Shown here piece after piece: positions 1-48,032 of a stretch of DNA of 64,000 nt (the first letter of the stretch is position 1; every line of letters begins with the position of its first letter). Under the pieces are notes generated by a model. The model saw only the letters and a list, made by a program, of their open reading frames with translations. It ran no database searches and had not been told where the DNA came from. The position numbers and the translations under genes were made by a program. The DNA lies in the NCBI GenBank assembly GCA_018664825.1, contig JABJNO010000018.1, positions 22,722 through 86,721 on the forward strand. Direction: 5' to 3'. This DNA comes from Candidatus Parcubacteria bacterium. GTDB taxonomy: Bacteria > Patescibacteriota > Patescibacteriia > UBA1558 > GWA2-36-10.

Positions 1-258
1 AATACCTCCACCCACCACCGCAACCAAAACAACTATCAGAAGAACCGAAATACCAACTACCTTTTGCTTTCCACCAACTGCTTTTTTGGGAGCGGCTGGC
101 AAAAATTTTTGCGGCATTATATGAACCTCTGAGTCATCAAGTTTGTTGGTGGCTGTAGCCACGCCTGCTTTGACACCCTTGCCATTTGCTTGGTCTTGAT
201 CAACAAATCCTTGCCCTACTTCTAAAATGTCTTTTTTCAATTCACTATTATCAAACAT
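1..258 (-). CDS. Partial (N-terminal) type-II membrane protein, paralog of the 262..1503 product; runs off the window edge
   Basis: The reverse-complement of 1..258 translates with no stops as MFDNSELKKDILEVGQGFVDQDQANGKGVKAGVATATNKLDDSEVHIMPQKFLPAAPKKAVGGKQKVVGISVLLIVVLVAVVGGGI. The ATG is at 256-258. The same MFD start and a following hydrophobic TM helix are seen in the upstream neighbor. This ORF is not in the supplied track. Confidence 0.45.
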   Translation of the reverse strand, partial: MFDNSELKKDILEVGQGFVDQDQANGKGVKAGVATATNKLDDSEVHIMPQKFLPAAPKKAVGGKQKVVGISVLLIVVLVAVVGGGI

Positions 259-261
259 ATA

Positions 262-1503
262 TTATTGTTCGTTTAAAAATGTAAAACTACTTAGCATTTC
301 TTGAAAAATTATCATGTACTCTGCGTTGGGCTCACCCGCCAAACTATAATCATAAATCAGTACAAAGAAATCCACTGTTCCTTCTTCTGCGGTTGGCCTG
401 AACAAAAGGACTCTATATCTATCTAAAGACATGTAAGCTGGCAAACCACCTATTGTATAATCTTCCCAAGAATCTTCTATCGCCAGATACTCTTGTTTTT
501 GTTCTTCTGTAAAATCTTGCATTCTGGCAGAGGTCACCCTTATGTGGTGTGATCCAATCCCAAAGACTCCTGGCCAAAATTGTACTTCTGACATATTATA
601 CCCTTCATCGGTAGAATCACTTTCGTAGATTGTCCAAGTTCCAGGTCTGTTGATAGAAAATCCAAAGTCTACATTTTGATGAGGAATATAAACCATATCA
701 TCACCACTAATTGTATCTATATCACCACCCCCTAACATACCCTCACCAAGTGGATTGTAGCCATTACCTACTTCTACTCCATCTTGATAGCCATCACCAT
801 CTGTATCGGCCTTATTTGGATCGGTGGCATATGTTTCTACCTCTTCATAATCTGTCAAACCATCCAGATCAGTGTCACTAATCAAAGGATTAGTGTTGTA
901 CTCGTTTACTTCCTGAGCATCAAATAGACCATCATTGTCTGTATCAGCATTGTTTATGTCTGTACCAAGACTTTTTTCTTCGGCATTGCTCAGCCCATCA
1001 AAATCATCATCAAAATCATTGTCATTTGTATTGTCATTTGTATTGGAATTATCTTCCGGAATATCATTGGTAACATTTATATTTTCTCCGCCAGTATCTT
1101 CGGTATTTTTATTCATAAAATAATACACTGCCCCGCCGGCCAAACCAAGGATAAAAATAACAATAATAATAGCTATTATTTTTTTGAGAGGACCTCCTCC
1201 ACCTCCATCAGCTACAATCATATCAGAAGCAGATGGTCCTGCGGGTGGTTGCCCCGGAGCTGGTGGTGGATTATTTTGAGAAATTGGAGTTATCTTGCCT
1301 GACTGAATAGCACTAGGTTTTTCTACTGCGCTTGCAGGAGCAGGATCAACATCAGCAAACATATCATCAATACCTCCTCCAACTGGTGCAGCCGGCGCTG
1401 CTGGCTGAGGAGTAGTTGGTTGAGGCGATACTGGTACTACTGGTTGAGGAGTAGTTGGTTGAGGAGTTTGTGTATTCTCGTCTTTTTTTAAATCATCAAA
1501 CAT
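262..1503 (-). CDS. Membrane-anchored protein with three thrombospondin type-3-like Ca-binding repeats (DTDxDGxxDxxE), a Pro/Thr/Gln-rich N-terminal tail and a C-terminal domain of unknown function
   Basis: The N-terminus carries PQPTTPQP repeats. There is one TM helix (IIAIIIVIFILGLAGGAVYYF). The repeats read DTDNDGLFDAQE, DTDLDGLTDYEE and DTDGDGYQDGVE. Confidence 0.6.
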   Translation of the reverse strand: MFDDLKKDENTQTPQPTTPQPVVPVSPQPTTPQPAAPAAPVGGGIDDMFADVDPAPASAVEKPSAIQSGKITPISQNNPPPAPGQPPAGPSASDMIVADGGGGGPLKKIIAIIIVIFILGLAGGAVYYFMNKNTEDTGGENINVTNDIPEDNSNTNDNTNDNDFDDDFDGLSNAEEKSLGTDINNADTDNDGLFDAQEVNEYNTNPLISDTDLDGLTDYEEVETYATDPNKADTDGDGYQDGVEVGNGYNPLGEGMLGGGDIDTISGDDMVYIPHQNVDFGFSINRPGTWTIYESDSTDEGYNMSEVQFWPGVFGIGSHHIRVTSARMQDFTEEQKQEYLAIEDSWEDYTIGGLPAYMSLDRYRVLLFRPTAEEGTVDFFVLIYDYSLAGEPNAEYMIIFQEMLSSFTFLNEQ

Positions 1504-1527: not shown

Positions 1528-4500
1528 TTAAATACCTGTGATTATATGGCGACAATATATAGTATTATTACCAAGACTACCTTCCCAAATAGGCATAGCT
1601 CCTGGCACCATGTGTCCCCAAGCTGGCGTACCATTTCCCCAGTAAGAATCTGTATCAGAATTCCACCAACCATCAGCCCAACCGAGTGTTATTGGAAGGT
1701 CCGGAGAATTCCAAGTAGGAGTATCGGCACCTGGATTATAAGTTACCTCACGCCAATCATTGGCAACGGTTTCTGATGGTGCGGTAGTTGTACAGTCCCA
1801 ATAAGGACTGCCTACATTTGTAGTAATACCATAGGACTCTGGTATGCATAAACTAGGCTTGTGCTCCCAATCATCCGTATCACCTTCATCAAAGGTTAAT
1901 TCAGTACTAGTATAATCTTTACACTCATCGTTATTCATACAGATATTCCCCTCACCATTACCCCCCGGATGAATACAATATCCTGGATCATGCGCCATAT
2001 CAACTGTACAATCCGGGACACTACTCGTACAAGTTTCTCCAGCATGTGAGCCCATATAACAAACACTTTGACAACGCATTGCCTGGCAAGAAAAACTCCC
2101 AACTATCCCAGCCGCACTACCGCCATCAGTAGCCTCAAAGGCAACTACGTTACCATTTGGATTATAATAGTTGAATACACCCGGAAAAGTAGTGTCATCA
2201 ATAAGAAACTCACAAGCTCCATCACCCGTTGCCTCAGCAAGTGGTTGTCCATAATCATCACATTGTTCCCAGTTGGTTCCTGTACCTACTGTTGTACCAT
2301 TTACATAAAGGGTAAAGCTATTATCAGCCATAAACTTGGCGTATAGTCTATTTTCTGTACAACAAGCGCCTTCGTACAAATCCTGACAATCATTGATACA
2401 AGTTACGGTACCAGCTACATATTGAGATGGATCATGCAAACGACAAGCTATTTCACCGTCACAAGCTTCTCCATGATAAGCTTGCACAATAGTATCACCG
2501 CAATATGGCCCTGAAGACTGACAGTCTATACCACAATAACCTGGGGAAGTAATACTATATACACCATTGTTAGATCCAGAATCACATATTTCACCATAAT
2601 CAGTAGTCCCGCCTGAACCATCCTGGGTAATACCATCACCACACCATCCTCCAAGGCCGGTACACATACTTCCTCCGCTATCATCACAATCATATTGATA
2701 TATTCTACCCAATTGCCAAAATACACCTGATTCATATGGAGTTGGAGAAAGGAAGTTGTGATAATCACATCCTTCATAATCTTCTTGGAATGTACCATCT
2801 CCACAATATCCTCCAGTAGTACCCGCACAATCATAACGACATTCGTATTGACTATCTATATCTGAGCTAGACACCGGAGTTATAGGGTAAAGAGGACTTG
2901 GCTCTAATGGTAATGGTAAGAAGAAGGAATCTCCTATATCACATATTTCACCATAATCAGTAGTCAAGCCTGAACCATCTTGGATAATACCATCACCACA
3001 CCAACCACCGTCGGTGGCTGTACAACGACCGTAGTCATTGCCAGTGGCAAAATCCTGATGTATACCTGACATACGACATTGATATTGTTCAAACTGACCT
3101 GTATATTCTCTTGGCGGTGTCACATAATCCGTGTCGCATAATTCATCAAAGGCATAATCAAATACTCCGTCACCACAATAATCATCTGTAAATTGACACT
3201 CAGTAGTACAACCATAAGTATTGGTAGGACCTGAAACATCTGGAGATGGCACGGTATATCCTACATAATCGCACTGCTCTCCTACTGGCTCTACTATACC
3301 ATTACCACAACTACCCAGATACGGCGTACCAGGTGAACAGACCACTGTACAACTACTTGTACAAACTACTTCTCCATGAGCAGGGGCATCTGCCGTACAA
3401 TCCCAGCCGCTTAATCCATCTGGGGAAGCTGATCCATCGCATTGTTCTATACCTTCTGTCCAAATATTATCACCACAAGCAGCGGCCGGAGTCATGTCAT
3501 TACAAACTGGTACACAAGAACGTCCTATTCCAGAATCACAGGTTGCAGTACCATTGCCTGCTGCACAAATATATTGAACACCCTCACATACTCCAGATGC
3601 ACTACAACTTTCACAAACTTCATCAAATGGCTGAACAAAGGTATCTCCGCAATATCCTCCACATTCGGCAGGAGTAAACGGTGGAGTTGGCTCTGTCCAT
3701 TGACACTCTACCAAAACTCCTCCCTCAATAGTTCCTGAAGGATTACAACCAATAGCTTGTTCATCCCACCAAGTAGCTCCAACTGGATTGACGGGTGACA
3801 TTGGGGCAGGAGGATTTGAACAACCCATTGTCCGGACATCTCTATCACAAGCTTCGCCAGGATCTATAATACCATTTCCACAATACGCACTTGTTGGAGT
3901 ACCCGGTGAATATGTTGAGAACCCGTCGCACTGTGGTAGTAGTCGAGCTATAATATTTTCAGTAGACTCACCAGCTCTATCCATGCCAGTAGGATTTGCT
4001 GGACCATTGTATAAAACAAGATCATAACGATATGGCACACCTCCTACAAACACAAAGGAGCCTGGTGTTTCTGTTTCAAAATTTGCACCTATTTCAAAGT
4101 CGATGCCTCCAACAGTATTTTCATATAAATATATTTGTGAATACTCTGTACAACCAAAAGTCAAAGTAGACTCATCCCAACATGTGTCTGGGTCAGCATC
4201 AGCACTCACACATCCATTAAATAAATTTACTGGATCAACTGGCAAAGAGGTTCCTAGATCTGAGCTAAGCTCCCCTTGCCAAGAAAGGGGCCATTTACTC
4301 GTTGACATACCATCAACAAAAGATCCGGAGGTAAGCAAAGGATAATAAGGAACACAACTTCCACCACCAGGACAAACGCCAGTCTCGGCACAATTATCAA
4401 TACTAGGATCATTGCTACAAGCCATATTATCTTCCCCATATTCTAAAATCTTTTCTTTTACACTCATCAATTCACCTAAACGCCTTGCATCACGCCTCAT

Positions 4501-7500
4501 CTTCTTTCCCAAAGATTCACAATAATCTCCTACATCTGGGCAATCAAAATCACTAGAACAAGCAGCGCCTGTACCGTTGCAGATATTAGTTCCTAGATCT
4601 AATCCTGAATTTTGATTAAATTCAAAATTTTCTAAAAGCTGATTGTATATCTCTTTAGTATCATCGCTAGCTCCCACATTGTGAGCTACCAAATAAATAT
4701 TTGTATAAATTGCTCCACCATTATAGTTTGTAGCAGCAACATAAGTAGTGGCTCCCACCTCTAGAGCTTCATAACCATCCACTTCTTTTAGAGTACCCTG
4801 ATCAGCTGGATAATCAAATTTTTTGTTATACCAATCTCTAATTGATGAATGTCCAAAGTTGCTCAACATCCTAACACTAATCAAATCAACTGTATCTGGA
4901 GGAGCTCCAGGTGTGACCGCAACGGGTCCAGCAAAACCAACATAGGCATAATTTGGCGGTCCTACGCAAGGAAAGATGCAATTTCTAGCTGCATAAACTT
5001 GATAATTATATGTTTGACCAGCTGTCACTCCAGTGTCTACCCACGTTTCTGTGTTGGCTGGTAAATTTGCTCTAAAACTATAACTTGGAGCCCCGTCTGG
5101 CCTCCTGTATACCCAAAAGGCTTCTTCTCTGGGACCTGAATCATTCCAATTCAATGTCACATCCACTTCAGAAGGGGTTGCTGTCAATCCCGTTGGCGGA
5201 AGAGGACTAAAGCCAGGCATTATAGCAGGCGGGAATGCTTCGGGCATTGAGCCTGGATAATTAGTTGTCTGGGCAAAAACAAAATTTGGTGTAAGCCAAC
5301 TAGCTATTTTATCTGTCAAAGATTTTGTGTTTGTTTGCGTATTATCTTCAAAAGCTAAGCTACCAAATCTATCAGCACCGCTGTCTGCATATACATTTAT
5401 CAAAAATAAATATTCTCCTAGATATTCTGGTGGATTAAAGTTTATCATTGTAGGTGGGTACGCCAAATAAGGCAAAGGAGTATCACCGTCTACACCAGTA
5501 TCATAACAATAATATGTTGAAAAATTATGCGCACCCTGAGTCCATGGATAACCAGCTAAACTTGGCCATGGATTTTCACACATAAACAACTCAATAATCG
5601 CAGAATCTGAACCAGAACCAGCATCAGTACTAGTAACATTTAAAGCTAAAACAAGATTTCCGTTGATAGGATTGGCCGTCAAATAAGTCTGTTGAGCGTC
5701 TGGTCCTATACCAACCAATGAACTACCCCCAATATCCCAATCAAATGTTAAAAATGTACCACTAAGCATATCGCCCCTAGCATCATAGACCAAGGCGTCA
5801 TATACATGCTGATTTCCAGCAACTCCGGTAAGCTCATCATCTATACAATCAGATCCACTGCAGTTGAACACATCAGATGGTGGGTCAATCTCCACAAAGC
5901 TGATCTGACAAATATGATCCCCGGTATCAAACATCCATCCATCTGCACCAAAGAGGTTGGGGAAAGTTATGGGACTAGCTGATAAATCCAAAGGCCTACC
6001 ATGTACGCTTAATATATTTGGAGCAACCATACTGACCGAGACCGTTTGATTGAAACCAAAATAATCACTTGGATTAAATATAGCCTCTGTTTCAAATACT
6101 CCATTGTTATCAGAATCTATTTTCCTAAGAACCCATGACCCTGGAACTTCGCACCAATACGAAGCTCCGTCAAAAAAACAACTTGTATCGGTTGATGGTC
6201 CTTCATATATTTTTATATTATTATTTATACTTTCACCATCCATTATCTCACTAAAGTGAATTGTGATGGCTGTATTTGGACATATATCCGTACCAAACAT
6301 CAGGGGCTCATAACTGATAATATAGGGATCAGTAAGACTTGAGGCTGACATATCAACATCAAAGATAGCTGTTTCAGCATGATTCACCGGTACTCCTGTA
6401 GTATTGTCAGTAATTGTTCCAACTATCGGAGCTAGACCAGTACCTGTTAGTAGTTGATTTCTAATATCAACACTCATTTGATCTGCGGGACCAAAAACAT
6501 CTGCAACCGGAACCTGCAAAGAAGTCCAATTATAGGTACACATACCAACTGGACATTGTACTGGTACAAGACCACAAGCACTATTGCTCATTGGCATTAT
6601 GTCATACTCCTCTACTTGACCAATGGTATCTGCAGTATGACTATCTGGGGTGACGTCTGCTCCGGTAATAGGACAATCTATATCACTAGTGCCAAATGTC
6701 CAACTATGTCCAGCAAAGGTATTTCCAAAATTATCCTCAAAACCAGCTGGTACAGTCACCGTGTAAGTCTCATTGACTAACAATGGAATATGATTGAGCA
6801 TAAGTCCAAATCCAGCAGCAATCCCTGTAAGAGGATTTCCTACATCTATATATTCAGTACCACTACTATCCTCAATACTAAATGACCCAATAACTGCAGC
6901 CAAAGTTGTGGCATTGGGTTGATTATTAAATGTAATAGTCACTGCCGAAGTCAGGCAAGCTGCACCACAGTTTGGAGTAAAGTCGGTAAAAGTAAAAATA
7001 TCTGAACTACCAATTATACTTACATCCAAAACTCCAGTATCCGCAAACACTTCTGGTGCCCCTCCGCTATTGTCTGTCAGTTGGAGTCCAATATTTGTAA
7101 AATCATCACCAACAATCAAAGTGGTAACAGCGTTGGTGGTTTGATTATTTATATTATTTATCAAAGCAACACTTGCATCACTTTCTGACCATGCATAATC
7201 ACAAGTACCGGCTGGGCAAGATACAGGGTACCAACCGCAACTACTATTATTGGCCATTGGCAAAGCACTGTATGGCACTATATCTCCAGGGGCAGTAGCA
7301 ACAATCGTCTCGTTGTCTGGATTGATAGATACATCTTCTATTGAGCACTCTTCTTCACCAGTTGTGAATACCCAGACAAAATCTGCACCCAGGGATTCAC
7401 TATAAATATTTTGTAAAGCGCCTGGTACTGTCACGGTATAAGTGTCATTAAAATTAAATGGAACAATACCATGTTCAATCTCTATGCTATTTGGACTCAA

Positions 7501-10500
7501 TTGAGTCACATTTGTTCTCCACTCTGTTCCTCCGCTGTCCCTAATATGAAAATCAGGTTCATTGGTAGTAATGCTAGCAAGTGGTATTGGAGAATTAAAT
7601 TCTACTACAACCATTGGATTACTACAGGCCCCATTACAATTTGGATCATAATCTATTATTTCCAAATCTACCGCATTGATGATTGGATTTGTAGCCCCGG
7701 TGTATGTCACAGTATCTATCATGGTACTAGCCTCCAAAGTCACATGATTGGGAGTTTCATTTTCTGTAGCATTGAGACCAGTCAAACCCGTAAGGCCTCT
7801 ACTGGTCATCAAGTTTGTAGTCGGACTAATAGAAGCATAAGGAGGGGCTGTGGCTGGCTCTGCTGTAATAGCCCAATCCCAATTATAATTTTCTCCACAC
7901 ATATTACAATTATCAGCTTGTGGGGAAGCATAAAATGATCTAGTTTGACCTATGTTTGTATCACCAGAGGGTGATTGTGGTGATATGGTCACTCCGCTCA
8001 CTGGACACATATCTGCCGTTGGCCTTGTTTTGAAATGCCAATCAGGAGCAGGATTAGCAACAGTAGGCCAAGTATCTCCACCTACTTCCGTGTTGAATCC
8101 AGGACCAGCCCCCATAACTATCCTATACCATGTATCTGGATTTAAATTAGCAGCAGTTGGATCAAATACTATACCTTCTCTATTGCTACCACTATTTATA
8201 ATACTCGAGGCACCTGGCACAGCTGTAGTGCAGGTAGCTGCTGAAAAAGCCCCGCCCACATTACACTCTGTAACCATGAAATTGGCAGGAATCAACAAAT
8301 CCGCATCTACGACATCCCTAGTAAATAAGGCTACTATATTTGTGCTCAAATATGCGTCTTCAGAATCATATCCATCCATATCATCTGGCCATGGAGATGG
8401 AGATTGCAAATTGTTACTACAATCATGTGAATAGGCAAGCCCAAAAGGATCTGCCTCGGTATTTAGTGTCCAAGTATAAGTACAAGTATTTAGACTTGAA
8501 CAGCCTCCAGCGGGAGCGCAGGTATTATCAGAACAGCACTCATCACCAAGTCCGTAGGCCTGGCAGTATGCATTGCTACCACCACAACTACCTACATTGA
8601 ACATCATAGAGTTTGAAGGCGTAGGTGAGGAATCATTTACCACCATCACTGATCCTGACTCAGCAAGACCAGGTACCGCCACTCCTTCTATATCATTATT
8701 GGCCCAAGAGCTTCCTGTGCCCCATGAATTTAAATTGAAATCAAAAACATCACTTGCTGCACCCAGAGTTCCAAAATTGTCACCAGCCAAATCTACCACT
8801 ACTCCACCGGCCGGTCCGTTGTCTGGGTGAAGATAACAAAGTCCTGGACCTGGTAGCCCAGCTGTTATATCAATCAAATAATCATTACTATCAATACCAT
8901 CGCTGGTAGTCACCCTAGCCACACGATCAATGCCAATACTAACTCCAGTAGGCACCTTTACTATAATCTGTGTATCCTGCCAAAAAGAGCTACTACATAT
9001 AGGAGGGAAAGTAAAATCCCCATTTATACCATCAAGTAACAATTGTCCTTGGGTATTTCCAAAGTTGACTCCACGGACAGTGAGGTATTGCCCTTCTGGA
9101 CCACCATCGGGAGTGATCTCTGTGATCCTAGGCAAACCGCTATCCACTGGTAAAGCAGAAAATGGAAAAGCATTACTAATATCTGTACCATTTTGCATAA
9201 CTACTCCTACCTCACCAATTACATTTGGTACATCTGGATTAGCCGTTGAATCATTTACTACATTTGTATTAGGACTAGTAAAGCCTCCGAAAATAGCCTC
9301 GCTACCAAGAAAACGTATACCGCGAACATTTACAGAGTCTTCATAAGATCCGGTTGGCGGAGTCAGTTGACAGATACCCGGTCTATTAAGAGAGTTGTCT
9401 GAATTGAATAAAACTGAATTACTACTAGCCACTCCATCTGACCTCTCTAAAGTCAGTTGCCCCGTGCCCGCTCCTACGGGTACAACTACTATCACAGCTG
9501 TGTCAGTCCAAAGATTACTACACAAACCACCAGTAAGGACACTTGGCCATTCATTTGGCACTACACCACCTGAACCATCGTCAAAATATACCTGTCCCTG
9601 AGCACAGCCTGTGTCTTCACAAAAATTACTACCATAGACGGTAACAAAATTACCCTCTTCACTGGTATCTGGAGAAATAGAAGAAATAAATGGATCTCCA
9701 CTAGCACCAGAACTGCCAGAAGAACACTCGGAATAAGCTGAGCAAGAATTACTATCACAACAACCAGAAAGGCATTCACCGTTGCCGCCACAAGTGACAT
9801 TGAACCAGGCTGGATTTGATGTGTCTACTCCGACTTGGACAGTGACGTCACTAGATAGTGCATCTGTAGGCACCGTCAGGGTGATCAAGTCATTTGCCCA
9901 AGAATGAGCAATATCTGCATTGTTATAAATATTTCGAACAAGCTCTGTACCAGACACAGGAGAAGTATTTATCAAAACCTGATCATCCGGCGGACCAAAG
10001 TTGTCACCTTCTATATCAAAAGAAAATGTACCAGGATCAGAAGGCCCTTGGCTTGGGTTGAGGCAAAATATACTAGGCTGAGGCCCTGAAGAATTTATAT
10101 TGAAGAAACTGCCAAAAGTATGGAAATCACCTGTCTGACTCGTGACGGTAACTGGATAGTTTCCTGGAGTGACATTTGGAACTATCACTACTGTCTTCCA
10201 ATATCCACTACCAACGCTGAGCTCATCCCACACTGGAGCTCCTCCACAAGTTGCTAGATCAGCTACATTACCAGAACCAAATTCTACCTGACTAGTACCT
10301 GCTACATAATTGTCAAAATGCCAACCACGGATAGTAACCGCTGAACCAACACCGTTTGTAAGTGGTGTTATTTCACAGATACGGACTTCATTTGGATTGG
10401 TCGGTCTTGCACAGGTGCCTCCTGTGGGTGGTAAAGTAACACTATTAGTATTACCACTATTACCTGCGCCTGTTTCATCGTATAAAGATTGTAAAATAAA

Positions 10501-10824
10501 TCTAGAAATAGCATAAGCAGACACTATGATCACCAAGCCTATGACCGCACTAACTATGATCATCTTGGCTCGCTGAATCTTGTCTGTATTGCCAGCTGAG
10601 GTCATCCAAATAAATCCACCATACAGTATCAAAACCACAGCTAGTATTCCTAGAAATCCTAGGAAGATATTTATTATTCCGGCAATCGTATCCTGCAACG
10701 ATCTAGTGCCTAGATTGACATCCGTCAAATCATTGACACCAAAGACATCTTGAGCAAAGACTTTTTGCACAGCCAAAAAGCCTAGGATGAAAGTTGCGGT
10801 GATTGTGGCCAAAAATTTCTTCAT
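1528..10824 (-). CDS. Giant (3098 aa) cysteine-rich surface protein with an N-terminal signal peptide plus double hydrophobic-helix module, IPT/TIG-like and Fn3 domains, and multiple myxo-type cysteine-rich repeats (CGDG/CGNG...E.CD)
   Basis: It is a single uninterrupted ORF. The signal peptide MKKFLATITATFILGFLAVQKVFA is followed by a TrbC/VirB2-like two-helix module. IPT-like segments include ITEITPDGGPEGQYLTVRGVNFG. An Fn3 segment reads LTATPSEVDVTLNWND...YNYQVYA. Repeats such as WCGDGIIQDGSGLTTDYGEICD and CGNGIVEPVGEQCD recur. Confidence 0.8.
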   Translation of the reverse strand: MKKFLATITATFILGFLAVQKVFAQDVFGVNDLTDVNLGTRSLQDTIAGIINIFLGFLGILAVVLILYGGFIWMTSAGNTDKIQRAKMIIVSAVIGLVIIVSAYAISRFILQSLYDETGAGNSGNTNSVTLPPTGGTCARPTNPNEVRICEITPLTNGVGSAVTIRGWHFDNYVAGTSQVEFGSGNVADLATCGGAPVWDELSVGSGYWKTVVIVPNVTPGNYPVTVTSQTGDFHTFGSFFNINSSGPQPSIFCLNPSQGPSDPGTFSFDIEGDNFGPPDDQVLINTSPVSGTELVRNIYNNADIAHSWANDLITLTVPTDALSSDVTVQVGVDTSNPAWFNVTCGGNGECLSGCCDSNSCSAYSECSSGSSGASGDPFISSISPDTSEEGNFVTVYGSNFCEDTGCAQGQVYFDDGSGGVVPNEWPSVLTGGLCSNLWTDTAVIVVVPVGAGTGQLTLERSDGVASSNSVLFNSDNSLNRPGICQLTPPTGSYEDSVNVRGIRFLGSEAIFGGFTSPNTNVVNDSTANPDVPNVIGEVGVVMQNGTDISNAFPFSALPVDSGLPRITEITPDGGPEGQYLTVRGVNFGNTQGQLLLDGINGDFTFPPICSSSFWQDTQIIVKVPTGVSIGIDRVARVTTSDGIDSNDYLIDITAGLPGPGLCYLHPDNGPAGGVVVDLAGDNFGTLGAASDVFDFNLNSWGTGSSWANNDIEGVAVPGLAESGSVMVVNDSSPTPSNSMMFNVGSCGGSNAYCQAYGLGDECCSDNTCAPAGGCSSLNTCTYTWTLNTEADPFGLAYSHDCSNNLQSPSPWPDDMDGYDSEDAYLSTNIVALFTRDVVDADLLIPANFMVTECNVGGAFSAATCTTAVPGASSIINSGSNREGIVFDPTAANLNPDTWYRIVMGAGPGFNTEVGGDTWPTVANPAPDWHFKTRPTADMCPVSGVTISPQSPSGDTNIGQTRSFYASPQADNCNMCGENYNWDWAITAEPATAPPYASISPTTNLMTSRGLTGLTGLNATENETPNHVTLEASTMIDTVTYTGATNPIINAVDLEIIDYDPNCNGACSNPMVVVEFNSPIPLASITTNEPDFHIRDSGGTEWRTNVTQLSPNSIEIEHGIVPFNFNDTYTVTVPGALQNIYSESLGADFVWVFTTGEEECSIEDVSINPDNETIVATAPGDIVPYSALPMANNSSCGWYPVSCPAGTCDYAWSESDASVALINNINNQTTNAVTTLIVGDDFTNIGLQLTDNSGGAPEVFADTGVLDVSIIGSSDIFTFTDFTPNCGAACLTSAVTITFNNQPNATTLAAVIGSFSIEDSSGTEYIDVGNPLTGIAAGFGLMLNHIPLLVNETYTVTVPAGFEDNFGNTFAGHSWTFGTSDIDCPITGADVTPDSHTADTIGQVEEYDIMPMSNSACGLVPVQCPVGMCTYNWTSLQVPVADVFGPADQMSVDIRNQLLTGTGLAPIVGTITDNTTGVPVNHAETAIFDVDMSASSLTDPYIISYEPLMFGTDICPNTAITIHFSEIMDGESINNNIKIYEGPSTDTSCFFDGASYWCEVPGSWVLRKIDSDNNGVFETEAIFNPSDYFGFNQTVSVSMVAPNILSVHGRPLDLSASPITFPNLFGADGWMFDTGDHICQISFVEIDPPSDVFNCSGSDCIDDELTGVAGNQHVYDALVYDARGDMLSGTFLTFDWDIGGSSLVGIGPDAQQTYLTANPINGNLVLALNVTSTDAGSGSDSAIIELFMCENPWPSLAGYPWTQGAHNFSTYYCYDTGVDGDTPLPYLAYPPTMINFNPPEYLGEYLFLINVYADSGADRFGSLAFEDNTQTNTKSLTDKIASWLTPNFVFAQTTNYPGSMPEAFPPAIMPGFSPLPPTGLTATPSEVDVTLNWNDSGPREEAFWVYRRPDGAPSYSFRANLPANTETWVDTGVTAGQTYNYQVYAARNCIFPCVGPPNYAYVGFAGPVAVTPGAPPDTVDLISVRMLSNFGHSSIRDWYNKKFDYPADQGTLKEVDGYEALEVGATTYVAATNYNGGAIYTNIYLVAHNVGASDDTKEIYNQLLENFEFNQNSGLDLGTNICNGTGAACSSDFDCPDVGDYCESLGKKMRRDARRLGELMSVKEKILEYGEDNMACSNDPSIDNCAETGVCPGGGSCVPYYPLLTSGSFVDGMSTSKWPLSWQGELSSDLGTSLPVDPVNLFNGCVSADADPDTCWDESTLTFGCTEYSQIYLYENTVGGIDFEIGANFETETPGSFVFVGGVPYRYDLVLYNGPANPTGMDRAGESTENIIARLLPQCDGFSTYSPGTPTSAYCGNGIIDPGEACDRDVRTMGCSNPPAPMSPVNPVGATWWDEQAIGCNPSGTIEGGVLVECQWTEPTPPFTPAECGGYCGDTFVQPFDEVCESCSASGVCEGVQYICAAGNGTATCDSGIGRSCVPVCNDMTPAAACGDNIWTEGIEQCDGSASPDGLSGWDCTADAPAHGEVVCTSSCTVVCSPGTPYLGSCGNGIVEPVGEQCDYVGYTVPSPDVSGPTNTYGCTTECQFTDDYCGDGVFDYAFDELCDTDYVTPPREYTGQFEQYQCRMSGIHQDFATGNDYGRCTATDGGWCGDGIIQDGSGLTTDYGEICDIGDSFFLPLPLEPSPLYPITPVSSSDIDSQYECRYDCAGTTGGYCGDGTFQEDYEGCDYHNFLSPTPYESGVFWQLGRIYQYDCDDSGGSMCTGLGGWCGDGITQDGSGGTTDYGEICDSGSNNGVYSITSPGYCGIDCQSSGPYCGDTIVQAYHGEACDGEIACRLHDPSQYVAGTVTCINDCQDLYEGACCTENRLYAKFMADNSFTLYVNGTTVGTGTNWEQCDDYGQPLAEATGDGACEFLIDDTTFPGVFNYYNPNGNVVAFEATDGGSAAGIVGSFSCQAMRCQSVCYMGSHAGETCTSSVPDCTVDMAHDPGYCIHPGGNGEGNICMNNDECKDYTSTELTFDEGDTDDWEHKPSLCIPESYGITTNVGSPYWDCTTTAPSETVANDWREVTYNPGADTPTWNSPDLPITLGWADGWWNSDTDSYWGNGTPAWGHMVPGAMPIWEGSLGNNTIYCRHIITGI
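2581..2660. repeat. Intragenic direct repeat copy A (about 75-80 nt) that encodes one of the duplicated Cys-rich WCGDGI.QDGSG.TTDYGEICD units
   Basis: It is near-identical by eye to 2938..3010 (atcacatatttcaccataatcagtagtc...accatcaccacacca). Confidence 0.4.
2938..3010. repeat. Intragenic direct repeat copy B
   Basis: It is near-identical to 2581..2660. Confidence 0.4.
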
Positions 10825-10848: not shown

Positions 10849-12471
10849 CTAATTACTTGTGCCGCAATTTGTACCAGAATTAGGCCAAGGACAGTCGGTA
10901 CCAACTGCTGCATTATTATTATCACAAAGACACGTGCCTGTAGGATCTGTACATTCACAGAAATACCAACAGTTTTGTCTCAAATCACTGATTCCAGAAG
11001 TAAGAGTCGGGGTATAGTCTGTAGATGGATCCAGTATATCGTGCCTTATCTCGACAATATGACTACTATTGAGTCCCAACCAAAAATTGACATCTCCAAG
11101 CGTGCTCTGATGAAATTGGATGTTTGTACTATTGATTGAGCTAGACAATAAATTTTCATCAAAAGTAACTCTGATTGGCTCAGATACAGAAGCATCGTCG
11201 TTGTCTTCCATATTGTTTATTTCTGGTGGATCAAGATCGATTGTATTATTGGTGCTAAATGTCCAGGTAAAATCTCCTCCTGCACCACCATCGCCATCAC
11301 CATCCAAAATATTTCCAGCCATGTCTGTAATCACATTTGGAAAAGCCCCGGTACCACTGACCGTGGATAGCATGGTAGCGCTAGCAGGCAAACAATATAC
11401 ATCTCCTCCACAAGAGTTTGAACCACACCAAACATCAGTAATAAATTCAACAGTTTGATATTGATTTGATATCCAATATTGTCCATCCAGAGTAACCCCA
11501 CCCTCGTCTACTGTAATATTTGTAAAAGGAGGATGTACACCAGCTGAAACTATAGGATTGACGGGTTCAGTAAAGTTTATTTGAACTACGCTATTTCGAG
11601 GATTATCAAGACCAACTGGCAAAACAGTATCTACTCTAGGTGGTGTGATATCTACTTCATTGTTTACTGTAAAGTCCCAGTCATAGTATCCGGTAAATGG
11701 GAAAGCAGTCGCCCCTGCTACAGTAGCCAGATCATCCAGGGTCATTTTGTAGGGAACGTCACCAACGTCATCACCCAAAAGAGGTGCTGGATCAAACTGG
11801 AAATTCAGCAACTCGGCTGTATCATAAGTGACTATCAGTTCTGAATTGATCAAACTAACACCGTCGTGAGGAGCCAAAATAATATGGCTTGTATCAGCCT
11901 GACACTCTACCAATGTACCAACTATAGTAGTACAGGTAGTCCCAACCACTATATCCGTAGCATCAATTGGTTCTTTGAAAGTTACAAAAATATTGGTATT
12001 TCTAGGAATCTCACGTGCATTACGAGAAGGATAATGACTTTCTATAACTCCACCTCCCAAACCAAGTCCTCCGGTATATCCGCCACCAGATCCACCACTA
12101 CCCCCTACCGTTCCGTCGTATCCTTCTTGAAGTAAGAAGCGGGCAATAGCATAAGAAGATAATATTATAGCTAGTCCAATAACACCGTTGATAATAATCT
12201 TTTTAGCACGATCAATTTTATCTGCATTGCCACCGGAAGTCATCCAAATATAACCACCATACAAAATAATAACGGTGGCTAAAATACCTAGGAAACCTAG
12301 GAATATATTAATAATACCAGCAACCATATCTCTAAGGTCTCTAGTACCCAAATTTGTATTGGACAAATCATTTACTCCATATACATCTTGAGCGCTGGCT
12401 ACTTCTGGCAACAAAAAAATAACTGCAAAAAAGAGAAATAATAATACAGTTATTTTTTTATTAGTTAGCAT
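10849..12471 (-). CDS. 540-aa secreted/anchored protein that shares the N-terminal signal plus double-helix module with the giant protein; its passenger region is different, Gly-rich and Cys-rich
   Basis: Its N-terminus reads AQDVYGVNDLSNTNLGTRDLRDMVAGIINIFLGFLGILATVIILYGGYIWMTSGGNADKIDRAKKII. The corresponding region of the 3098-aa protein reads AQDVFGVNDLTDVNLGTRSLQDTIAGIINIFLGFLGILAVVLILYGGFIWMTSAGNTDKIQRAKMII. Only 24 nt separate the two genes. Confidence 0.7.
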   Translation of the reverse strand: MLTNKKITVLLFLFFAVIFLLPEVASAQDVYGVNDLSNTNLGTRDLRDMVAGIINIFLGFLGILATVIILYGGYIWMTSGGNADKIDRAKKIIINGVIGLAIILSSYAIARFLLQEGYDGTVGGSGGSGGGYTGGLGLGGGVIESHYPSRNAREIPRNTNIFVTFKEPIDATDIVVGTTCTTIVGTLVECQADTSHIILAPHDGVSLINSELIVTYDTAELLNFQFDPAPLLGDDVGDVPYKMTLDDLATVAGATAFPFTGYYDWDFTVNNEVDITPPRVDTVLPVGLDNPRNSVVQINFTEPVNPIVSAGVHPPFTNITVDEGGVTLDGQYWISNQYQTVEFITDVWCGSNSCGGDVYCLPASATMLSTVSGTGAFPNVITDMAGNILDGDGDGGAGGDFTWTFSTNNTIDLDPPEINNMEDNDDASVSEPIRVTFDENLLSSSINSTNIQFHQSTLGDVNFWLGLNSSHIVEIRHDILDPSTDYTPTLTSGISDLRQNCWYFCECTDPTGTCLCDNNNAAVGTDCPWPNSGTNCGTSN

Positions 12472-13006: not shown

Positions 13007-13252
13007 CTATTTTCTTTTAAAACGTTTTAAAGCGATTTCGTCCATTTTACCGATTTTCTTTAAGTATTCAAAACGAGAGTTGATGGTATTTTTTCTTAAA
13101 GCACCGTCTTTTTGTTCTCTCTTGCTTTTTCCTTTGTTAAAAAATCTAATCTTCTTGGCTTGCAAAATTTTACCGCTTTGGATAGTTTTTTTAGTAAATC
13201 TACGAATTAAACTTTCAAAAGATTCACCGTCTTTACGTTTAACTTCCAACAC
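13007..13252 (-). CDS. rpsU: 30S ribosomal protein S21
   Basis: It is a small basic protein, MLEVKRKDGESFESLIRRFTKK...REQKDGALRK, typical of S21. Confidence 0.7.
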   Translation of the reverse strand: MLEVKRKDGESFESLIRRFTKKTIQSGKILQAKKIRFFNKGKSKREQKDGALRKNTINSRFEYLKKIGKMDEIALKRFKRK

Positions 13253-24074: not shown

Positions 24075-25238
24075 TTATAATCCTAGCTCAATAAACTCTA
24101 CTGTATTAGCTACTGCTGAAGGATAACTAATAATTGTATAGCTATCAATAATAACATTAGCTATTTCACCATCTTCATATGGCCCAAAAATTCTCTGAAC
24201 TTCTGAGCTATTTATAAAACAAAATGAAGTAGTCCGTGTATCCTCATCAATCTTTGGTAATTTAGCATCTGATATTTCATCAAGACTATAAACACAGTGA
24301 CTAGCAACAATATCGTTGTAATGGTACTCGCCAATTACATTTACTTGTCCACTAAATTTTACTTCTGCATTTTCATAACTAATTCCACTAAAAGATTCTT
24401 TGAATGGTGCAATAGAAACAATTTCCATATCTACAATTTCATCACCAACTTCGGCGGTCATTACATCAAAAATATTTGTTTGTTTTTCTAAAAATTTGAA
24501 ATTTTCTAATAACCAATCTGCCGAGTCAATCAAATCTTTATTATCTTCACCAATATAAACTATGATGTCTATTTTAGTGTCAGAAATAAAAGTTGTATAC
24601 TCACGTATATAACCTCCATCACCCACAACCCTTCTAGTGTAAGAAAAATACTTTGTGCCTGCATAATCATCTAACTTGTATTTTTCATAATCTTGACCAC
24701 CTGCAAAGGCTTGCCTTTGTCCTTGATAGCGTTCTGATGTTGGATAGTCCCCCATAAAGCATAAATTTTCTTCTGCTTTTGCCTCGCAAATTTTTATTGA
24801 GCCCTCTGAAAAAAATTGTATCTCCATTAAGTTTGGTAATCCACTATCAGCTCCTAAAAAATCATAAGAAGCAAAAGACCCTCTCCTGCCTTCTTCTAAA
24901 CTTTTACTAATAGTGTATTTATTAGGAAATTCTATACTTAAATTAGCTTCCGGTATATAAAATGCTTTTAGATCAACCTCTTCCACTTCTTTTTCTTTCA
25001 CCTCCACTTCTTTTTCTAAATCCTCCACTTCTTTTTCTAGTTCAGAAATCTTACCACCCGCTTCATTTTTAATTTCAGATAATTTACTATTGAGACTAGA
25101 GACAGAGGCTTGTTGCCAAGTATAAACAATACCACCCACCAATAAAGCGGTAATAATAACCAACAAGACCATCACACCACCTTTGTTGTGTTTTTTGTTT
25201 TTCTTTGGTGTCCCTGGGGCATTCAATTTTTTGTACAT
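24075..25238 (-). CDS. Hypothetical membrane-anchored protein with an N-terminal TM, a coiled coil (EKEVE repeats) and a C-terminal globular domain
   Basis: It has a long ORF, an N-terminal TM helix (VMVLLVIITALLVGGIVY) and KEVEDLEKEVEVKEKEVEE repeats. Confidence 0.5.
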   Translation of the reverse strand: MYKKLNAPGTPKKNKKHNKGGVMVLLVIITALLVGGIVYTWQQASVSSLNSKLSEIKNEAGGKISELEKEVEDLEKEVEVKEKEVEEVDLKAFYIPEANLSIEFPNKYTISKSLEEGRRGSFASYDFLGADSGLPNLMEIQFFSEGSIKICEAKAEENLCFMGDYPTSERYQGQRQAFAGGQDYEKYKLDDYAGTKYFSYTRRVVGDGGYIREYTTFISDTKIDIIVYIGEDNKDLIDSADWLLENFKFLEKQTNIFDVMTAEVGDEIVDMEIVSIAPFKESFSGISYENAEVKFSGQVNVIGEYHYNDIVASHCVYSLDEISDAKLPKIDEDTRTTSFCFINSSEVQRIFGPYEDGEIANVIIDSYTIISYPSAVANTVEFIELGL

Positions 25239-45134: not shown

Positions 45135-48032
45135 TTACGTTTTACCCTTAAGTGCACTTTTGATAAGCTCTCCTTTTGCATCCAAGTCCATACCATCAGC
45201 AGCACTCCTTGTCTCTTCATTTATTATACCTTTTTTCTGAAGTAAATCAAGTAGCATGTCATAAAAATCAGAACTTTCCTGAACAAACTCTTCGTCTGAT
45301 GTATTGTCTCTAAAGTCTTCATTAACGACTATCTCGCCATCTTTTCTCTCTACTAGCTTGGTTTTTTCTATATGTTCTCTATATTCTCTAATTTCAGATG
45401 CATTGTCAAATAAATCAGCCTGCAAAACCGCTACTTTGATTTCTCTAACATCTGTAATTAATCTTTGTACTTTTTCAGCCATTTCATCAATTCCAGCCAT
45501 TTCTTTGTAGACTCCTTGCATTTTTTCATACTCAGCTTTCTTTCTTGGTGGTAGATAACCAAATAACAATTGTAAAGTCTCCAGTGAGGAGAAATATTGT
45601 ATATTGTATTTACCATCGGTATTGAGTAATCCAGCTGCATCACCATTTTGATTGATTGATTTGTATTTGTCTATAGATTTATGAGGATTAAATGAAGTTA
45701 GAGTCTTTTGCCAATTTTTTAAATTTTCCTCCTGATCTCCTCCGGTTGTTGTGGTATAATCTGGCCATTTTTCACTACTCTGAAAAAAGCCTGCTTTTTC
45801 TAAAATAGAATAAATAATTACTTGCTCTTCTGGAAATTGATCATACTTTCTAATATACTTATATAGATAATATTCAATATCCATATTGGTACCTTCATCC
45901 ATGTATCCGCCAATTACATTATCAATCAACTCACGCATAGTAAGATTTGATTTTTTTAATTTATCACTATAATTGGTGGTAGTACCAGCCCCAATGAGTT
46001 GATCAAGATTTCTAAACTCAGGCAAATTTTCCGCACTACCTTCAAACATATCCATAATAATGCGAGCACCCATACTCAAGCGATATATATCCTTGAATAC
46101 AGAAAACCTATCTTCCTGCTTGACCAAAAGCTCTGCACCCATCCTGTCATTAAGAAGTTTGACCAACAACACTTGGAAAATTTGATCGTGCTTGGCTCTT
46201 TCTTTTGATTTTTTAACAACTTCCATAGCTTCTGGAAAATCCGCAAAAGCAGTATCGGCTAATTTTTCTAAATCAAGCCTACCCAAAAGTTCATCAATAT
46301 TTGACACCTCTCTTGATTGAGGAAGGTATCCCATCTTGATTGGGTGGATTCTACTATATGAAGCTGGATCCATATCGTTGTATCTAGCCTGCTTGTATCT
46401 TTCACCGGTATTACCAGTCCAGATCACACAATAACCATCTTTGACTTGAATATCTCCGGAGTCAGTCCTAGTCTGGATGATGTCACCGGGTTTTTTGGTA
46501 AGTAGATCATTGAAGGCAATCAATACCTCTGGAGTAATAGCATTGGCCTCATCAATAATCAAGGGTTTACCTTCGGTCATGGCTTTGTACATAGCACCTA
46601 GAACATAACGCCCCTGTACCTGATTGCCAAATAAACCTTCTAATTGCTGTTCTATGTCTGCAGAAAATTCTTCTGGTAATTTTTCTTTATTATCTTCTAC
46701 ATATTGATCAAATTTTTCTTTATCAAAATCTTCACCAGGATTGGCGTGATCAAAATCTTCTTTCAATCTATTCAAGACAATTGTATCTCTAAAATCACCT
46801 TTACGCTTTGCAAGCTCTGCCATTAATACATCGTCTGGAACACTATCGTCAAAAATCTCACCAGTACCTGAGTCTTTGTTTAAAATATTTAAAACTTCAG
46901 AAAGTGATAATTTTTGAATTTTAAATTCTTCGGTAAATCTATCAGGATCCAAAAATTTACTACCCGAAACTATGATAGGCTCATTCTTGAATCTAGTACG
47001 AGATAGATGCACAGCTAAAGCGGTTTTCCCGGTACCAAAGTCTCCATGAAGATACACGATGGTCGGGGGTCTTTTTGTCAAAGAAGGCATAGCCTCTTCT
47101 ATAATCTTTTTTACATAGTCTGTTTCTACTATTTTACCTGTATTTAATAATTCATGTAGATATTTCATTTCCTTGCTATAATTTACATAAGCAGGAATAA
47201 AATCTTTTTCTACTATATTGCCCTGTTCATCATATGTTGCCTCTGTGCCCAGTTTGTATTCAGTATTATATTTTTTGGCAGCCAACCTCTCTACTCTACT
47301 CGTAGACTTCTGCATCTTTTCTTCATCTACTCCGTGAATCCTAGCTTTTTCACCCTGAGTACGCAAAGAATCTTCATTACGACTAACATTGGCCATATGG
47401 ATTCCCCTTTTGACAGTTTCAATCTGACGTAAAGAGTCCCTCACTTCTGGCAATGAACTTCTAGAATATGCTTTTATTTTTTGAATATCTTCTTCTTCAT
47501 AAGCATCCATCTCTTCACTCAAGGTACTATAATGTGCCTCCATTAAGACATCAAATCTAGCCAGTTTACCCAAAGTACGGACTTCTACCTCTGCTTCCAT
47601 CTCTCTTTCTTTTTTGGCGTCTCTTGCATGAACCCCGTTGACGTCCAAAATCTTTTTTCTTTCTGTCTTATCTATAGAGTCCATGAGCATTTCCATAAAA
47701 ACATCCCTATCAACTCCCCACACAGCATCAAAATCAGCGAGTCTTATAGGATGAGCAAATTTATTTTTTGGATCAGCTTCTTGAGCATTTTTCAAATGCT
47801 CTTGAACAACAGCCTTTAAATCATCTGGCAAAGTATCAAATACCTCTGAGGTCACCAAATTTTCATAAGTCATGTACTTTTTGATCTCATCAAAAATAGA
47901 CAACATCTGCTCTCGCTTGATTTTGTACTCATAAGCCAATCTCTCTGCCTCCAAAGCCTCTGCTACTTCCGCTCTCTGCTCTTCATCATTTAGCTCTGGT
48001 GAAGGTATGGTTGGCATTCTTGATTCTTTCAT
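45135..48032 (-). CDS. Very large (965 aa) AAA+ ATPase of the MoxR/AAA_5-like type, with about 320-aa N-terminal and about 350-aa C-terminal extensions
   Basis: Walker A reads VYLHGDFGTGKTALAV. Walker B reads KPLIIDEANAI. Sensor-1 is WTGNTGERY. An insertion sits between Walker A and B. Confidence 0.7.
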   Translation of the reverse strand: MKESRMPTIPSPELNDEEQRAEVAEALEAERLAYEYKIKREQMLSIFDEIKKYMTYENLVTSEVFDTLPDDLKAVVQEHLKNAQEADPKNKFAHPIRLADFDAVWGVDRDVFMEMLMDSIDKTERKKILDVNGVHARDAKKEREMEAEVEVRTLGKLARFDVLMEAHYSTLSEEMDAYEEEDIQKIKAYSRSSLPEVRDSLRQIETVKRGIHMANVSRNEDSLRTQGEKARIHGVDEEKMQKSTSRVERLAAKKYNTEYKLGTEATYDEQGNIVEKDFIPAYVNYSKEMKYLHELLNTGKIVETDYVKKIIEEAMPSLTKRPPTIVYLHGDFGTGKTALAVHLSRTRFKNEPIIVSGSKFLDPDRFTEEFKIQKLSLSEVLNILNKDSGTGEIFDDSVPDDVLMAELAKRKGDFRDTIVLNRLKEDFDHANPGEDFDKEKFDQYVEDNKEKLPEEFSADIEQQLEGLFGNQVQGRYVLGAMYKAMTEGKPLIIDEANAITPEVLIAFNDLLTKKPGDIIQTRTDSGDIQVKDGYCVIWTGNTGERYKQARYNDMDPASYSRIHPIKMGYLPQSREVSNIDELLGRLDLEKLADTAFADFPEAMEVVKKSKERAKHDQIFQVLLVKLLNDRMGAELLVKQEDRFSVFKDIYRLSMGARIIMDMFEGSAENLPEFRNLDQLIGAGTTTNYSDKLKKSNLTMRELIDNVIGGYMDEGTNMDIEYYLYKYIRKYDQFPEEQVIIYSILEKAGFFQSSEKWPDYTTTTGGDQEENLKNWQKTLTSFNPHKSIDKYKSINQNGDAAGLLNTDGKYNIQYFSSLETLQLLFGYLPPRKKAEYEKMQGVYKEMAGIDEMAEKVQRLITDVREIKVAVLQADLFDNASEIREYREHIEKTKLVERKDGEIVVNEDFRDNTSDEEFVQESSDFYDMLLDLLQKKGIINEETRSAADGMDLDAKGELIKSALKGKT

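Follow-up and report, generated by a model that had tools for sequence, protein, structure and literature searches.

A giant protein of Parcubacteria headed by a VirB2-like pilin module: a probable hairpin-anchored fibrillar adhesin

A 64,000-nt stretch of DNA from Candidatus Parcubacteria bacterium (assembly GCA_018664825.1, contig JABJNO010000018.1, positions 22,722-86,721 of the forward strand; GTDB lineage Bacteria; Patescibacteriota; Patescibacteriia; UBA1558; GWA2-36-10), called the window in the following, contains one uninterrupted open reading frame (ORF) of 3098 codons on its minus strand (1528..10824), which occupies 14.5% of its length. To judge from its sequence, the encoded protein, referred to here as the giant, is probably a fibrillar adhesin of the Patescibacteria (Parcubacteria-type) cell surface that is anchored by an N-terminal pilin hairpin. 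A protein of this kind would be exported via the Sec pathway and cleaved by LepB after VFA, and its two hydrophobic helices would insert into the membrane as a hairpin, with the positively charged loop in the cytoplasm and both termini outside. The long C-terminal passenger would project as a stalk of tens of nanometers, composed of about 15 beta-sandwich domains, a core domain and Cys-rich repeats (assuming ~4 nm per domain) and stabilized by disulfides and probably by Ca2+, and a variable lectin-like tip would bind glycans of a partner cell or particle. The pilin hairpin would be the only membrane attachment. In bacteria of the Candidate Phyla Radiation (CPR), giant membrane proteins have been suggested to mediate the attachment to hosts (PMC8080830), and an episymbiotic lifestyle of the source cell is assumed here.

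The adhesin reading is strengthened by the confinement of the membrane segments to the N-terminus, by the very acidic and Cys-rich nature of the passenger, and by a distal domain that is CBM67-like both in predicted fold and in sequence profile. A hydropathy scan of the whole protein, which has a mass of 328 kDa, yielded just three hydrophobic segments (aa 4-24, 43-78 and 82-115), in accord with the signal peptide followed by two hydrophobic helices that an earlier note on this DNA, prepared from the letters without database searches, had described. The same scan found no hydrophobic segment after aa 115, so that a C-terminal transmembrane anchor is absent, and an LPXTG motif was not seen by eye at the C-terminus (...NNTIYCRHIITGI), for which no motif scan was made. 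Aspartate and glutamate together make up 12.2% of the residues, lysine and arginine 2.6%, and the calculated isoelectric point lies at the floor of the method (at most ~4). Every one of the 123 cysteines is located in the passenger.

The protein begins with a predicted Sec-type signal peptide (aa 1-24; 10753..10824 on the minus strand, on which all features of the locus lie), which was delimited by sequence reading and hydropathy and consists of MKK, a hydrophobic core and the putative cleavage site VFA/QD; the corresponding A-x-A/Q pattern is also present in stand-alone pilin homologues. It is followed by a module that resembles the VirB2/TrbC-like pilins of type IV secretion systems (T4SS; aa 25-113; 10486..10752), in which the two hydrophobic helices flank a short inter-helix loop, SAGNTDKIQRAKM, with three basic residues (K82, R85 and K87). 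In the whole-protein scan, the Pfam family T4SS_pilin (PF18895) matches aa 40-110 with 35.3 bits at a threshold of 26.6, which bears out the VirB2/TrbC-like module proposed in the earlier note. NCBIfam NF045849, an equivalog model for the Mbov_0395 pilin-like conjugal transfer protein of an integrative and conjugative element of Mycoplasma, reaches 37.8 bits and thus stays below its cut-off of 40. In a multiple alignment (A2), a Gly/Asn/Ser/Thr-rich linker (aa 114-137; 10414..10485) starts exactly where stand-alone pilins stop.

Residues 1-120 of the giant align end to end with complete stand-alone Patescibacteria pilins of 113-125 aa at 40-61% identity, and in the same alignment the free pilins extend from the signal peptide through to their C-terminus (...SLYNETV or ...ATGA), which falls where the linker of the giant begins. 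A search with aa 1-124 retrieved 221 proteins; the 120 matches listed are 82-198 aa long, mostly 113-155 aa, and 42-70% identical, nearly all of them carry PF18895, and those with a name are a 'pilin' or a 'hypothetical protein' of Patescibacteria. At least 113 related proteins of 1747-4806 aa share the module, the named ones being nearly all from Patescibacteria, so that the earlier remark about such modules at the N-termini of large CPR surface proteins was well founded. The module is also the best conserved part of the giant, with a median identity of 53% among 116 large homologues, compared with 27-37% to the query for the passenger regions (TIG, Big_5, core, Cys-repeat and C-terminal) in the same set. 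Positions L58, G59, G70, W73, T75, G78, A86, G96, L97, I99 and F109 are conserved to at least 90% in both 113 giants and 120 free pilins. The word 'anchor' may therefore understate the N-terminal module, which appears from its sequence to be a complete pilin and is better conserved than any other region of the giant; if it served simply as a membrane anchor, neither this top rank in conservation nor near-invariant positions in common with free pilins would be expected.

These features raise the question of whether the giant is a pilus subunit. According to three reports (PMC12102498, PMC10633639, PMC12857230), VirB2-like pilins (PF04956, PF18895) are widespread in Patescibacteria and often form arrays of 2-11 genes, VirB4 is encoded in 2407 of 3035 CPR assemblies, and a pilin array of Southlakia is essential for epibiotic growth. 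It is conceivable, if rather doubtful, that the giant and a 540-aa paralogue encoded directly upstream leave the membrane and co-polymerize with short pilins into a T4SS-type pilus, as rare, tip or base subunits whose passenger is displayed on the filament exterior. They would then be to the VirB2 family what the modular pilins PilB and PilC of Streptococcus sanguinis are to the type IV pilins. The full-length, highly conserved module with the near-invariant positions of free pilins would be in line with this possibility, as would the frequency of VirB4 in CPR assemblies, the tandem arrangement of the 540-aa gene and the giant gene, which is like that of the pilin arrays described for CPR (PMC12102498), the graded sizes found at pilin loci (106-131, 211, 382, 540-1048 and 2000-4800 aa), and the fact that modular pilins are established for type IV pili (PMC8179133). 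VirB2 adopts a U shape in the T-pilus, in which its two termini lie on the filament exterior and the positively charged inter-helix loop faces the lumen (10.1101/2022.09.25.509369). A C-terminal passenger is thus topologically compatible with T-pilus VirB2, and fits both an N-out/C-out membrane hairpin and a position in a pilus.

The free pilins nearest to the module of the giant (L005, 8919-10813; L006, 8931-10824) are encoded in arrays of three to four genes (211, 106, 116 and 131 aa), and one such array shares a genome of ~1.03 Mb with the giant homologue P0004, its short pilins being 54% identical to the module, which also speaks for joint assembly. The context of these arrays (FtsK-RecA-Wzx-Wzy-NTP transferase-SBP_bac_1-[pilins]-DUF2079-YebC-RuvC) is itself conserved and places them next to genes for polysaccharide export (Wzx/Wzy) and for a solute-binding protein, and not next to virB4 or other T4SS genes. 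The absence of virB4 next to the giant locus as well as next to the closest short-pilin arrays argues against a pilus, and a pilus of such a kind has not been seen in Parcubacteria. In addition, a passenger of ~2980 residues on a subunit of ~90 residues would obstruct regular helical packing, so that sparse or terminal incorporation is the most that could be envisaged, and the high conservation of the module could instead stem from constraints that lipids or an insertase impose on a hairpin anchor. It seems unlikely, although it would be of consequence, that the giant and its 540-aa neighbor are the first recognized modular VirB2-type pilins, in which subunits of the conjugative-pilus type have become carriers of huge adhesive passengers and assemble jointly with short pilins. 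Such an attachment organelle would be derived from a pilus, fixed in the chromosome and core to a large clade of Patescibacteria, and its lectin-like tips would be swapped between lineages in keeping with their different hosts. For the hairpin-anchored adhesin, the conservation of the hairpin as in free pilins suggests that it would probably also contact the partners of the short pilins, be it lipid, other pilins, or assembly machinery.

The passenger was scanned in nine segments with Pfam and NCBIfam, in addition to the whole-protein scan. Its proximal part is an array of IPT/TIG beta-sandwiches (aa 138-760; 8545..10413) that is broken by two short linkers rich in cysteine (aa 345-372 and 747-781). 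PF01833 was not reported when the giant was scanned whole and became visible only in the segment scans, in which aa 125-380 and aa 370-780 reached 30.0 and 46.4 bits, respectively, at a threshold of 20.9, with five stretches in total; the IPT/TIG-like domains of the earlier note are thereby substantiated. Alternating Big_5 and Ig-like modules (aa 1050-1750; 5575..7677) contain internal repeats that are 30-34% identical; PF13205 scores 67.2 bits versus a threshold of 23.6 in three stretches of the whole protein, and one further partial match emerged from the segment scan. The earlier claim of at least one Fn3 domain holds as a suggestive signal at aa ~1876-1947 (4984..5199) but not as a significant match, as PF00041 scores 16.6 bits, below its threshold of 25, with an E value of 0.009 on the segment; precomputed PF00041 matches exist in several homologues. 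BLAST coverage in 120 homologues delineated two conserved regions without a family assignment. One of them, aa 782-1050 (7675..8481), has no Pfam match; 56 of 119 homologues cover at least 60% of it, and their median identity is 29%. The other is a disulfide-rich core domain (aa 1980-2250; 4075..4887), which is specific to the family and has no close structural match.

The distal part of the stalk consists of nine Cys-rich acidic repeats (aa 2310-2815; 2380..3897). A motif scan located nine units of the form CG[DN][GTN]...E.C[DE] from aa 2315 to 2775; six of these are strictly C-G-[DN]-G, in accord with the six or more counted in the earlier note. The match to the Myxococcus cysteine-rich repeat consensus proposed there is likewise supported: TIGR02232 scores 28.7 bits, above its cut-off of 20.8, in a segment scan of aa 2300-2830, with five stretches that cover model positions 3-27 of 38 only. 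Single repeats remain just below the cut-off (18.5-19.7 bits), and Pfam DUF4215 gave no match to the giant. Of the domain families named in the earlier note, T4SS_pilin, TIG and TIGR02232 thus lie above threshold and only Fn3 below; the Big_5 domains, the conserved core domain, the lectin-like C-terminal fold and the upstream pilin-fusion paralogue had been overlooked. A reading of the giant as a toxin or enzyme was dropped, as the scans of its segments revealed no catalytic domain.

The C-terminal domain (aa 2820-3098; 1531..2367) is rich in tryptophan, as the earlier note had stated, with nine in the last 98 residues versus 1.8% overall. It is predicted to adopt a CBM67-like/galactose-binding-like beta-sandwich with a Cys-rich insert. 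The predicted fold resembles CBM67-like lectins and, with lower scores, the sugar-binding domains of GH78 and GH2 enzymes, and a profile built from alignment A3 independently matches the same lectins in the PDB with E values of 5e-5 to 7e-5. One of them, POL, is classed as a CBM67-like lectin with the ligands galactose (Gal), N-acetylgalactosamine (GalNAc), N-acetylglucosamine (GlcNAc) and L-rhamnose (L-Rha) (PMC11186620). As predicted fold and profile both lead to CBM67-like lectins, the distal end of the giant is probably a carbohydrate-binding module. An exhaustive search found this domain in only ~7 clusters among 1.84 billion representatives.

The giant gene is the second in a group of four genes. 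Twenty-four nucleotides upstream, the paralogue of 540 aa (10849..12471, minus strand) combines a pilin module, a Big_5 passenger and a Cys-rich C-terminus. Its pilin module is 68% identical to that of the giant (tblastn, aa 12-116), and it scores 31.4 bits with PF18895, 58 bits with Big_5 and 27.3 bits with TrbC (PF04956), just under the threshold of 27.9. The paralogue is kept at the same position in related loci, with 36-51% identity. Twenty-four nucleotides downstream of the giant gene, a 413-aa single-pass membrane protein (262..1503, minus strand) has a Pro-rich N-terminus, one transmembrane segment (aa 100-131, hydropathy) and TSP3-type Ca-binding repeats (TSP3_bac, 65 bits), and is kept in related loci with 42-45% identity. 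It is followed by the start of a fourth gene of the locus (1..258, minus strand; MFDNSELKK...VHIMPQKF..., then a transmembrane segment), which leaves the window and was recognized from its translation and by comparison with L001_368 and L004_325.

Farther upstream in the window lie the genes for YqeY, a probable S21 protein, HisRS, signal peptidase LepB, LytR, EngA, Pth and PepA, and the other ORFs of the window that were scanned are housekeeping genes. In related genomes the recurring order is LytR-LepB-HisRS-(S21)-YqeY-[pilin fusion of 540-1048 aa, sometimes two]-[giant]-[TSP3 protein]-[second membrane protein]-YbeY-(DAGK)-FtsA-FtsZ. It was found, with small variations, in all six further contexts examined, including relatives that are just 29-35% identical, and never beside virB4; in L008 another gene takes the place of YqeY, and in L009 the genes YbeY-FtsA-FtsZ lie past the flank. 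The passengers are exchanged between lineages (DUF4215, fn3, LamG/sialidase-like and VWA domains), with the pilin module and the locus remaining constant. A scan of the GTDB species-representative genomes with the core domain (six-sequence alignment A4) recovered 17 loci, which belong to Parcubacteria, Komeilibacteria and unclassified Patescibacteria apart from a few records labelled otherwise. In about 14 of these 17 species genomes, tblastn located the genes in the order given above, collinear and on one strand, the exceptions being short contigs or the most divergent matches. The preservation of this order across species with divergent giants indicates that the locus is ancient and vertically inherited. 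The results show a vertically inherited module of four genes (the pilin and Big_5 protein, the giant, and two TSP3-type membrane proteins) between yqeY and ybeY-(dagK)-ftsA-ftsZ.

Several side observations were made at these loci. In L009 (4747-7994), three tandem pilin-fusion genes encode proteins of graded sizes (696, 382 and 3771 aa), and proteins of 1604 aa and 574 aa with Lcl_C/TSP_3 matches replace the usual small TSP3 proteins. Genes for bAvd (PF22296) and an RVT_1 reverse transcriptase lie between LytR and LepB in L003 (3992-5325; GCA_004297205.1, SCUL01000002.1), ~5 kb upstream of the giant-pilin locus, and probably belong to a diversity-generating retroelement. The GTDB species-representative metagenome-assembled genomes of L013, L019, L021 and L025 carry the Patescibacteria-type locus under the title 'uncultured Gammaproteobacteria bacterium' and are probably mislabelled or mis-binned. 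In the window, an ORF of 81 aa with a GTG start (13007-13252, minus strand) between HisRS and YqeY, at the S21 position of related loci, probably represents rpsU; the 95-aa plus-strand ORF with which it overlaps is likely to be spurious. Two adjoining minus-strand ORFs of 965 aa (45135-48032) and 1053 aa (48096-51257) have only a weak AAA_5 P-loop match and a sub-threshold MG280 match, respectively, and are unlike VirB4, and a 387-aa ORF that adjoins gyrB (24075-25238, minus strand) has no significant Pfam match.

A strictly conserved, vertically inherited locus that is co-directional with lepB, hisS and yqeY, lies directly upstream of ybeY-dagK-ftsA-ftsZ and near lytR, and has intergenic gaps of 24 nt would also be compatible with a role in the architecture of the cell. 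The four-gene module could accordingly build a constitutive surface layer, a sheath, or a scaffold at the pole or septum instead of binding a partner; the Ca-binding TSP3 repeats of the partner proteins would suit this function, and giant proteins have been proposed to make up the fibrous cell surface of a CPR bacterium (PMC8080830). However, the distal domains show the lowest conservation and are swapped between lineages, and the extreme rarity of the C-terminal domain adds to this pattern, which is that of a ligand-binding tip under diversifying pressure and not of a lattice-forming layer. The tip is, moreover, lectin-like in its predicted fold, and neither SLH nor similar S-layer domains were found in the Pfam scans of the whole giant and its segments. 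A purely structural envelope role is therefore considered improbable.

It should be noted that several results weigh against the hairpin-anchored adhesin as well. The housekeeping and cell-division neighborhood would also be in keeping with a structural envelope role. Genes for T4SS machinery were recognized neither among the scanned ORFs of the window, which comprise about half of its ORFs of at least 100 aa, nor among the called genes of loci L001, L003, L004, L007, L008 and L009, so that the gene context does not support a link to pili. The profile of the pilin module (alignment A2) retrieved no solved VirB2 or TraA structure from the PDB but only chance transmembrane matches with E values of at least 0.14, and it is thus the Pfam profiles that connect the module with VirB2/TrbC. 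The model of the C-terminal domain, computed from an alignment of 10 sequences, has a predicted local distance difference test score (pLDDT) of 69 and is of moderate confidence. The core domain, ~10% of the protein, has no informative structural match. Finally, the cleavage of the signal peptide and the membrane topology are predictions.

A further possibility is that the long ORF arose from mis-assembled repeats, or that it is a gene of a foreign island that was acquired horizontally or is degraded. Both the repetitive architecture of the giant and the GC content of its gene (0.42, compared with 0.32-0.41 in neighboring genes) might be taken as hints in this direction. The GC content at the third codon position (0.264) is nevertheless at the level of the genome, within the range of housekeeping genes (0.22-0.35), and the excess resides in codon position 2 (0.49) and thus reflects the amino acid composition. 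At the DNA level, the ORF is almost devoid of repeats: no tandem repeats were found, and the sole repeated pair, 72 nt with 92% identity, corresponds to two adjacent Cys-repeat units. The internal repeats of the protein are just 30-47% identical, which points to ancient duplications. An NCBI partial entry from Candidatus Parcubacteria (P0001, HN859_02000) is identical over its 2554 residues, or 82% of the query, and may or may not stem from an independent assembly; the homologue P0002 is collinear with the giant over the full length at 63% identity, and P0009 covers 100% of the query. ORFs antisense to the giant gene have no family matches and are taken as shadow ORFs. Together with the synteny across species, the evidence from repeats, third codon positions and homologues led to the rejection of the mis-assembly and horizontal-transfer readings; an artefact is most improbable and effectively refuted. 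The single frame of 3098 aa, about 15% of the window, and the N-terminal sequence that the earlier note had quoted were both correct. A sequence search of the PDB with the whole giant gave no match, no tRNA genes were found in the 64-kb window, and scans for promoters and terminators performed no better than on shuffled sequence.

The giant belongs to a populous, uncharacterized family of Patescibacteria, the members of which are labelled in databases only as 'Ig-like', 'IPT/TIG' or 'DUF4215 domain-containing protein'. The two kinds of protein that are combined in it, giant surface proteins and VirB2-like pilins, have each been known separately in CPR. In the searchable literature, a search for the fusion of the two yielded nothing beyond general remarks about giant membrane proteins of CPR and about short VirB2-like pilins, and the accessible parts of the CPR pilin surveys do not discuss such fusions. 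The same search revealed no description of the pilin module as the most constrained part of giants, or of the family-specific core domain, the lectin-like tip and the four-gene locus by ftsA/ftsZ. How CPR/Patescibacteria recognize and hold partner cells is largely obscure outside a few cultured Saccharibacteria, and the reason why monoderm CPR keep VirB2-like pilins is a further open question; the giant family ties both together. It offers a defined locus that can be traced in metatranscriptomes and metaproteomes, a soluble tip suited to glycan arrays, and a conserved core domain without known fold relatives.

The closest known counterparts of the N-terminal module are the VirB2/TrbC pilins of T4SS (PF04956, PF18895), including the cluster of Southlakia epibionticum (Quinonero-Coronel 2025), with which it has in common the signal peptide, the two helices and the positive loop. 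It is 40-61% identical over the full length to free Patescibacteria pilins, its profile match is above threshold, and the tandem paralogues of VirB2-like pilin arrays have a parallel in the pair of the giant and the 540-aa protein. In contrast to these stand-alone pilins of ~70-150 aa, the giant is about 25 times longer owing to its C-terminal passenger of ~2980 residues, and it is encoded at a housekeeping locus and not with virB4, virB6 or other T4SS genes. Its module has no detectable sequence similarity to solved VirB2/TraA, and head-to-tail cyclization or a small free C-terminus would be impossible unless the passenger were cleaved off. PilB and PilC of Streptococcus sanguinis, two modular type IV pilins (PMC8179133), follow the same concept, a pilin module that carries a grafted adhesive or lectin module and by which a filament or membrane anchor displays a binding domain. 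However, they belong to an unrelated pilin superfamily (type IV, with a single N-terminal helix and processing by prepilin peptidase), their passengers are far smaller, and their assembly into pili has been shown experimentally, whereas the giant is known from sequence alone.

The repeats of the distal stalk are comparable to the Myxococcus cysteine-rich acidic repeats (TIGR02232/DUF4215), the CG(D/N)G...E.CD unit occurring nine times in the giant and scoring above the NCBIfam cut-off. They differ in that they match only the first two thirds of the model, that single repeats are sub-threshold, and that the spacers are longer and irregular; Pfam DUF4215, which does not match the giant, does match more distant members of the family. 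The C-terminal domain is to be compared with POL of Pleurotus ostreatus (PDB 6kbj) and with the CBM67 of the GH78 rhamnosidase of Streptomyces avermitilis (3w5n), from which it differs by a Cys-rich insert of ~80 residues, by an order of strands that looks permuted in the predicted fold, and by the lack of an attached catalytic domain.

In its overall design the giant resembles the giant fibrillar adhesins, such as Ebh, SiiE, LapA/RTX and Giant1-5 of Apilactobacillus (PMC12863079), and the CPR giants of Vampirococcus (PMC8080830), which are likewise several thousand residues long, have stalks of tandem Ig-like domains, are acidic or Ca-associated, and have a variable distal ligand-binding domain, which is putative in the giant. 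These proteins are anchored by LPXTG/sortase, by a retention module of a type I secretion system or by a C-terminal transmembrane segment, in contrast to the N-terminal VirB2-like hairpin of the giant, and the family of the giant is further set apart by a disulfide-rich core domain of its own and by its conserved four-gene locus.

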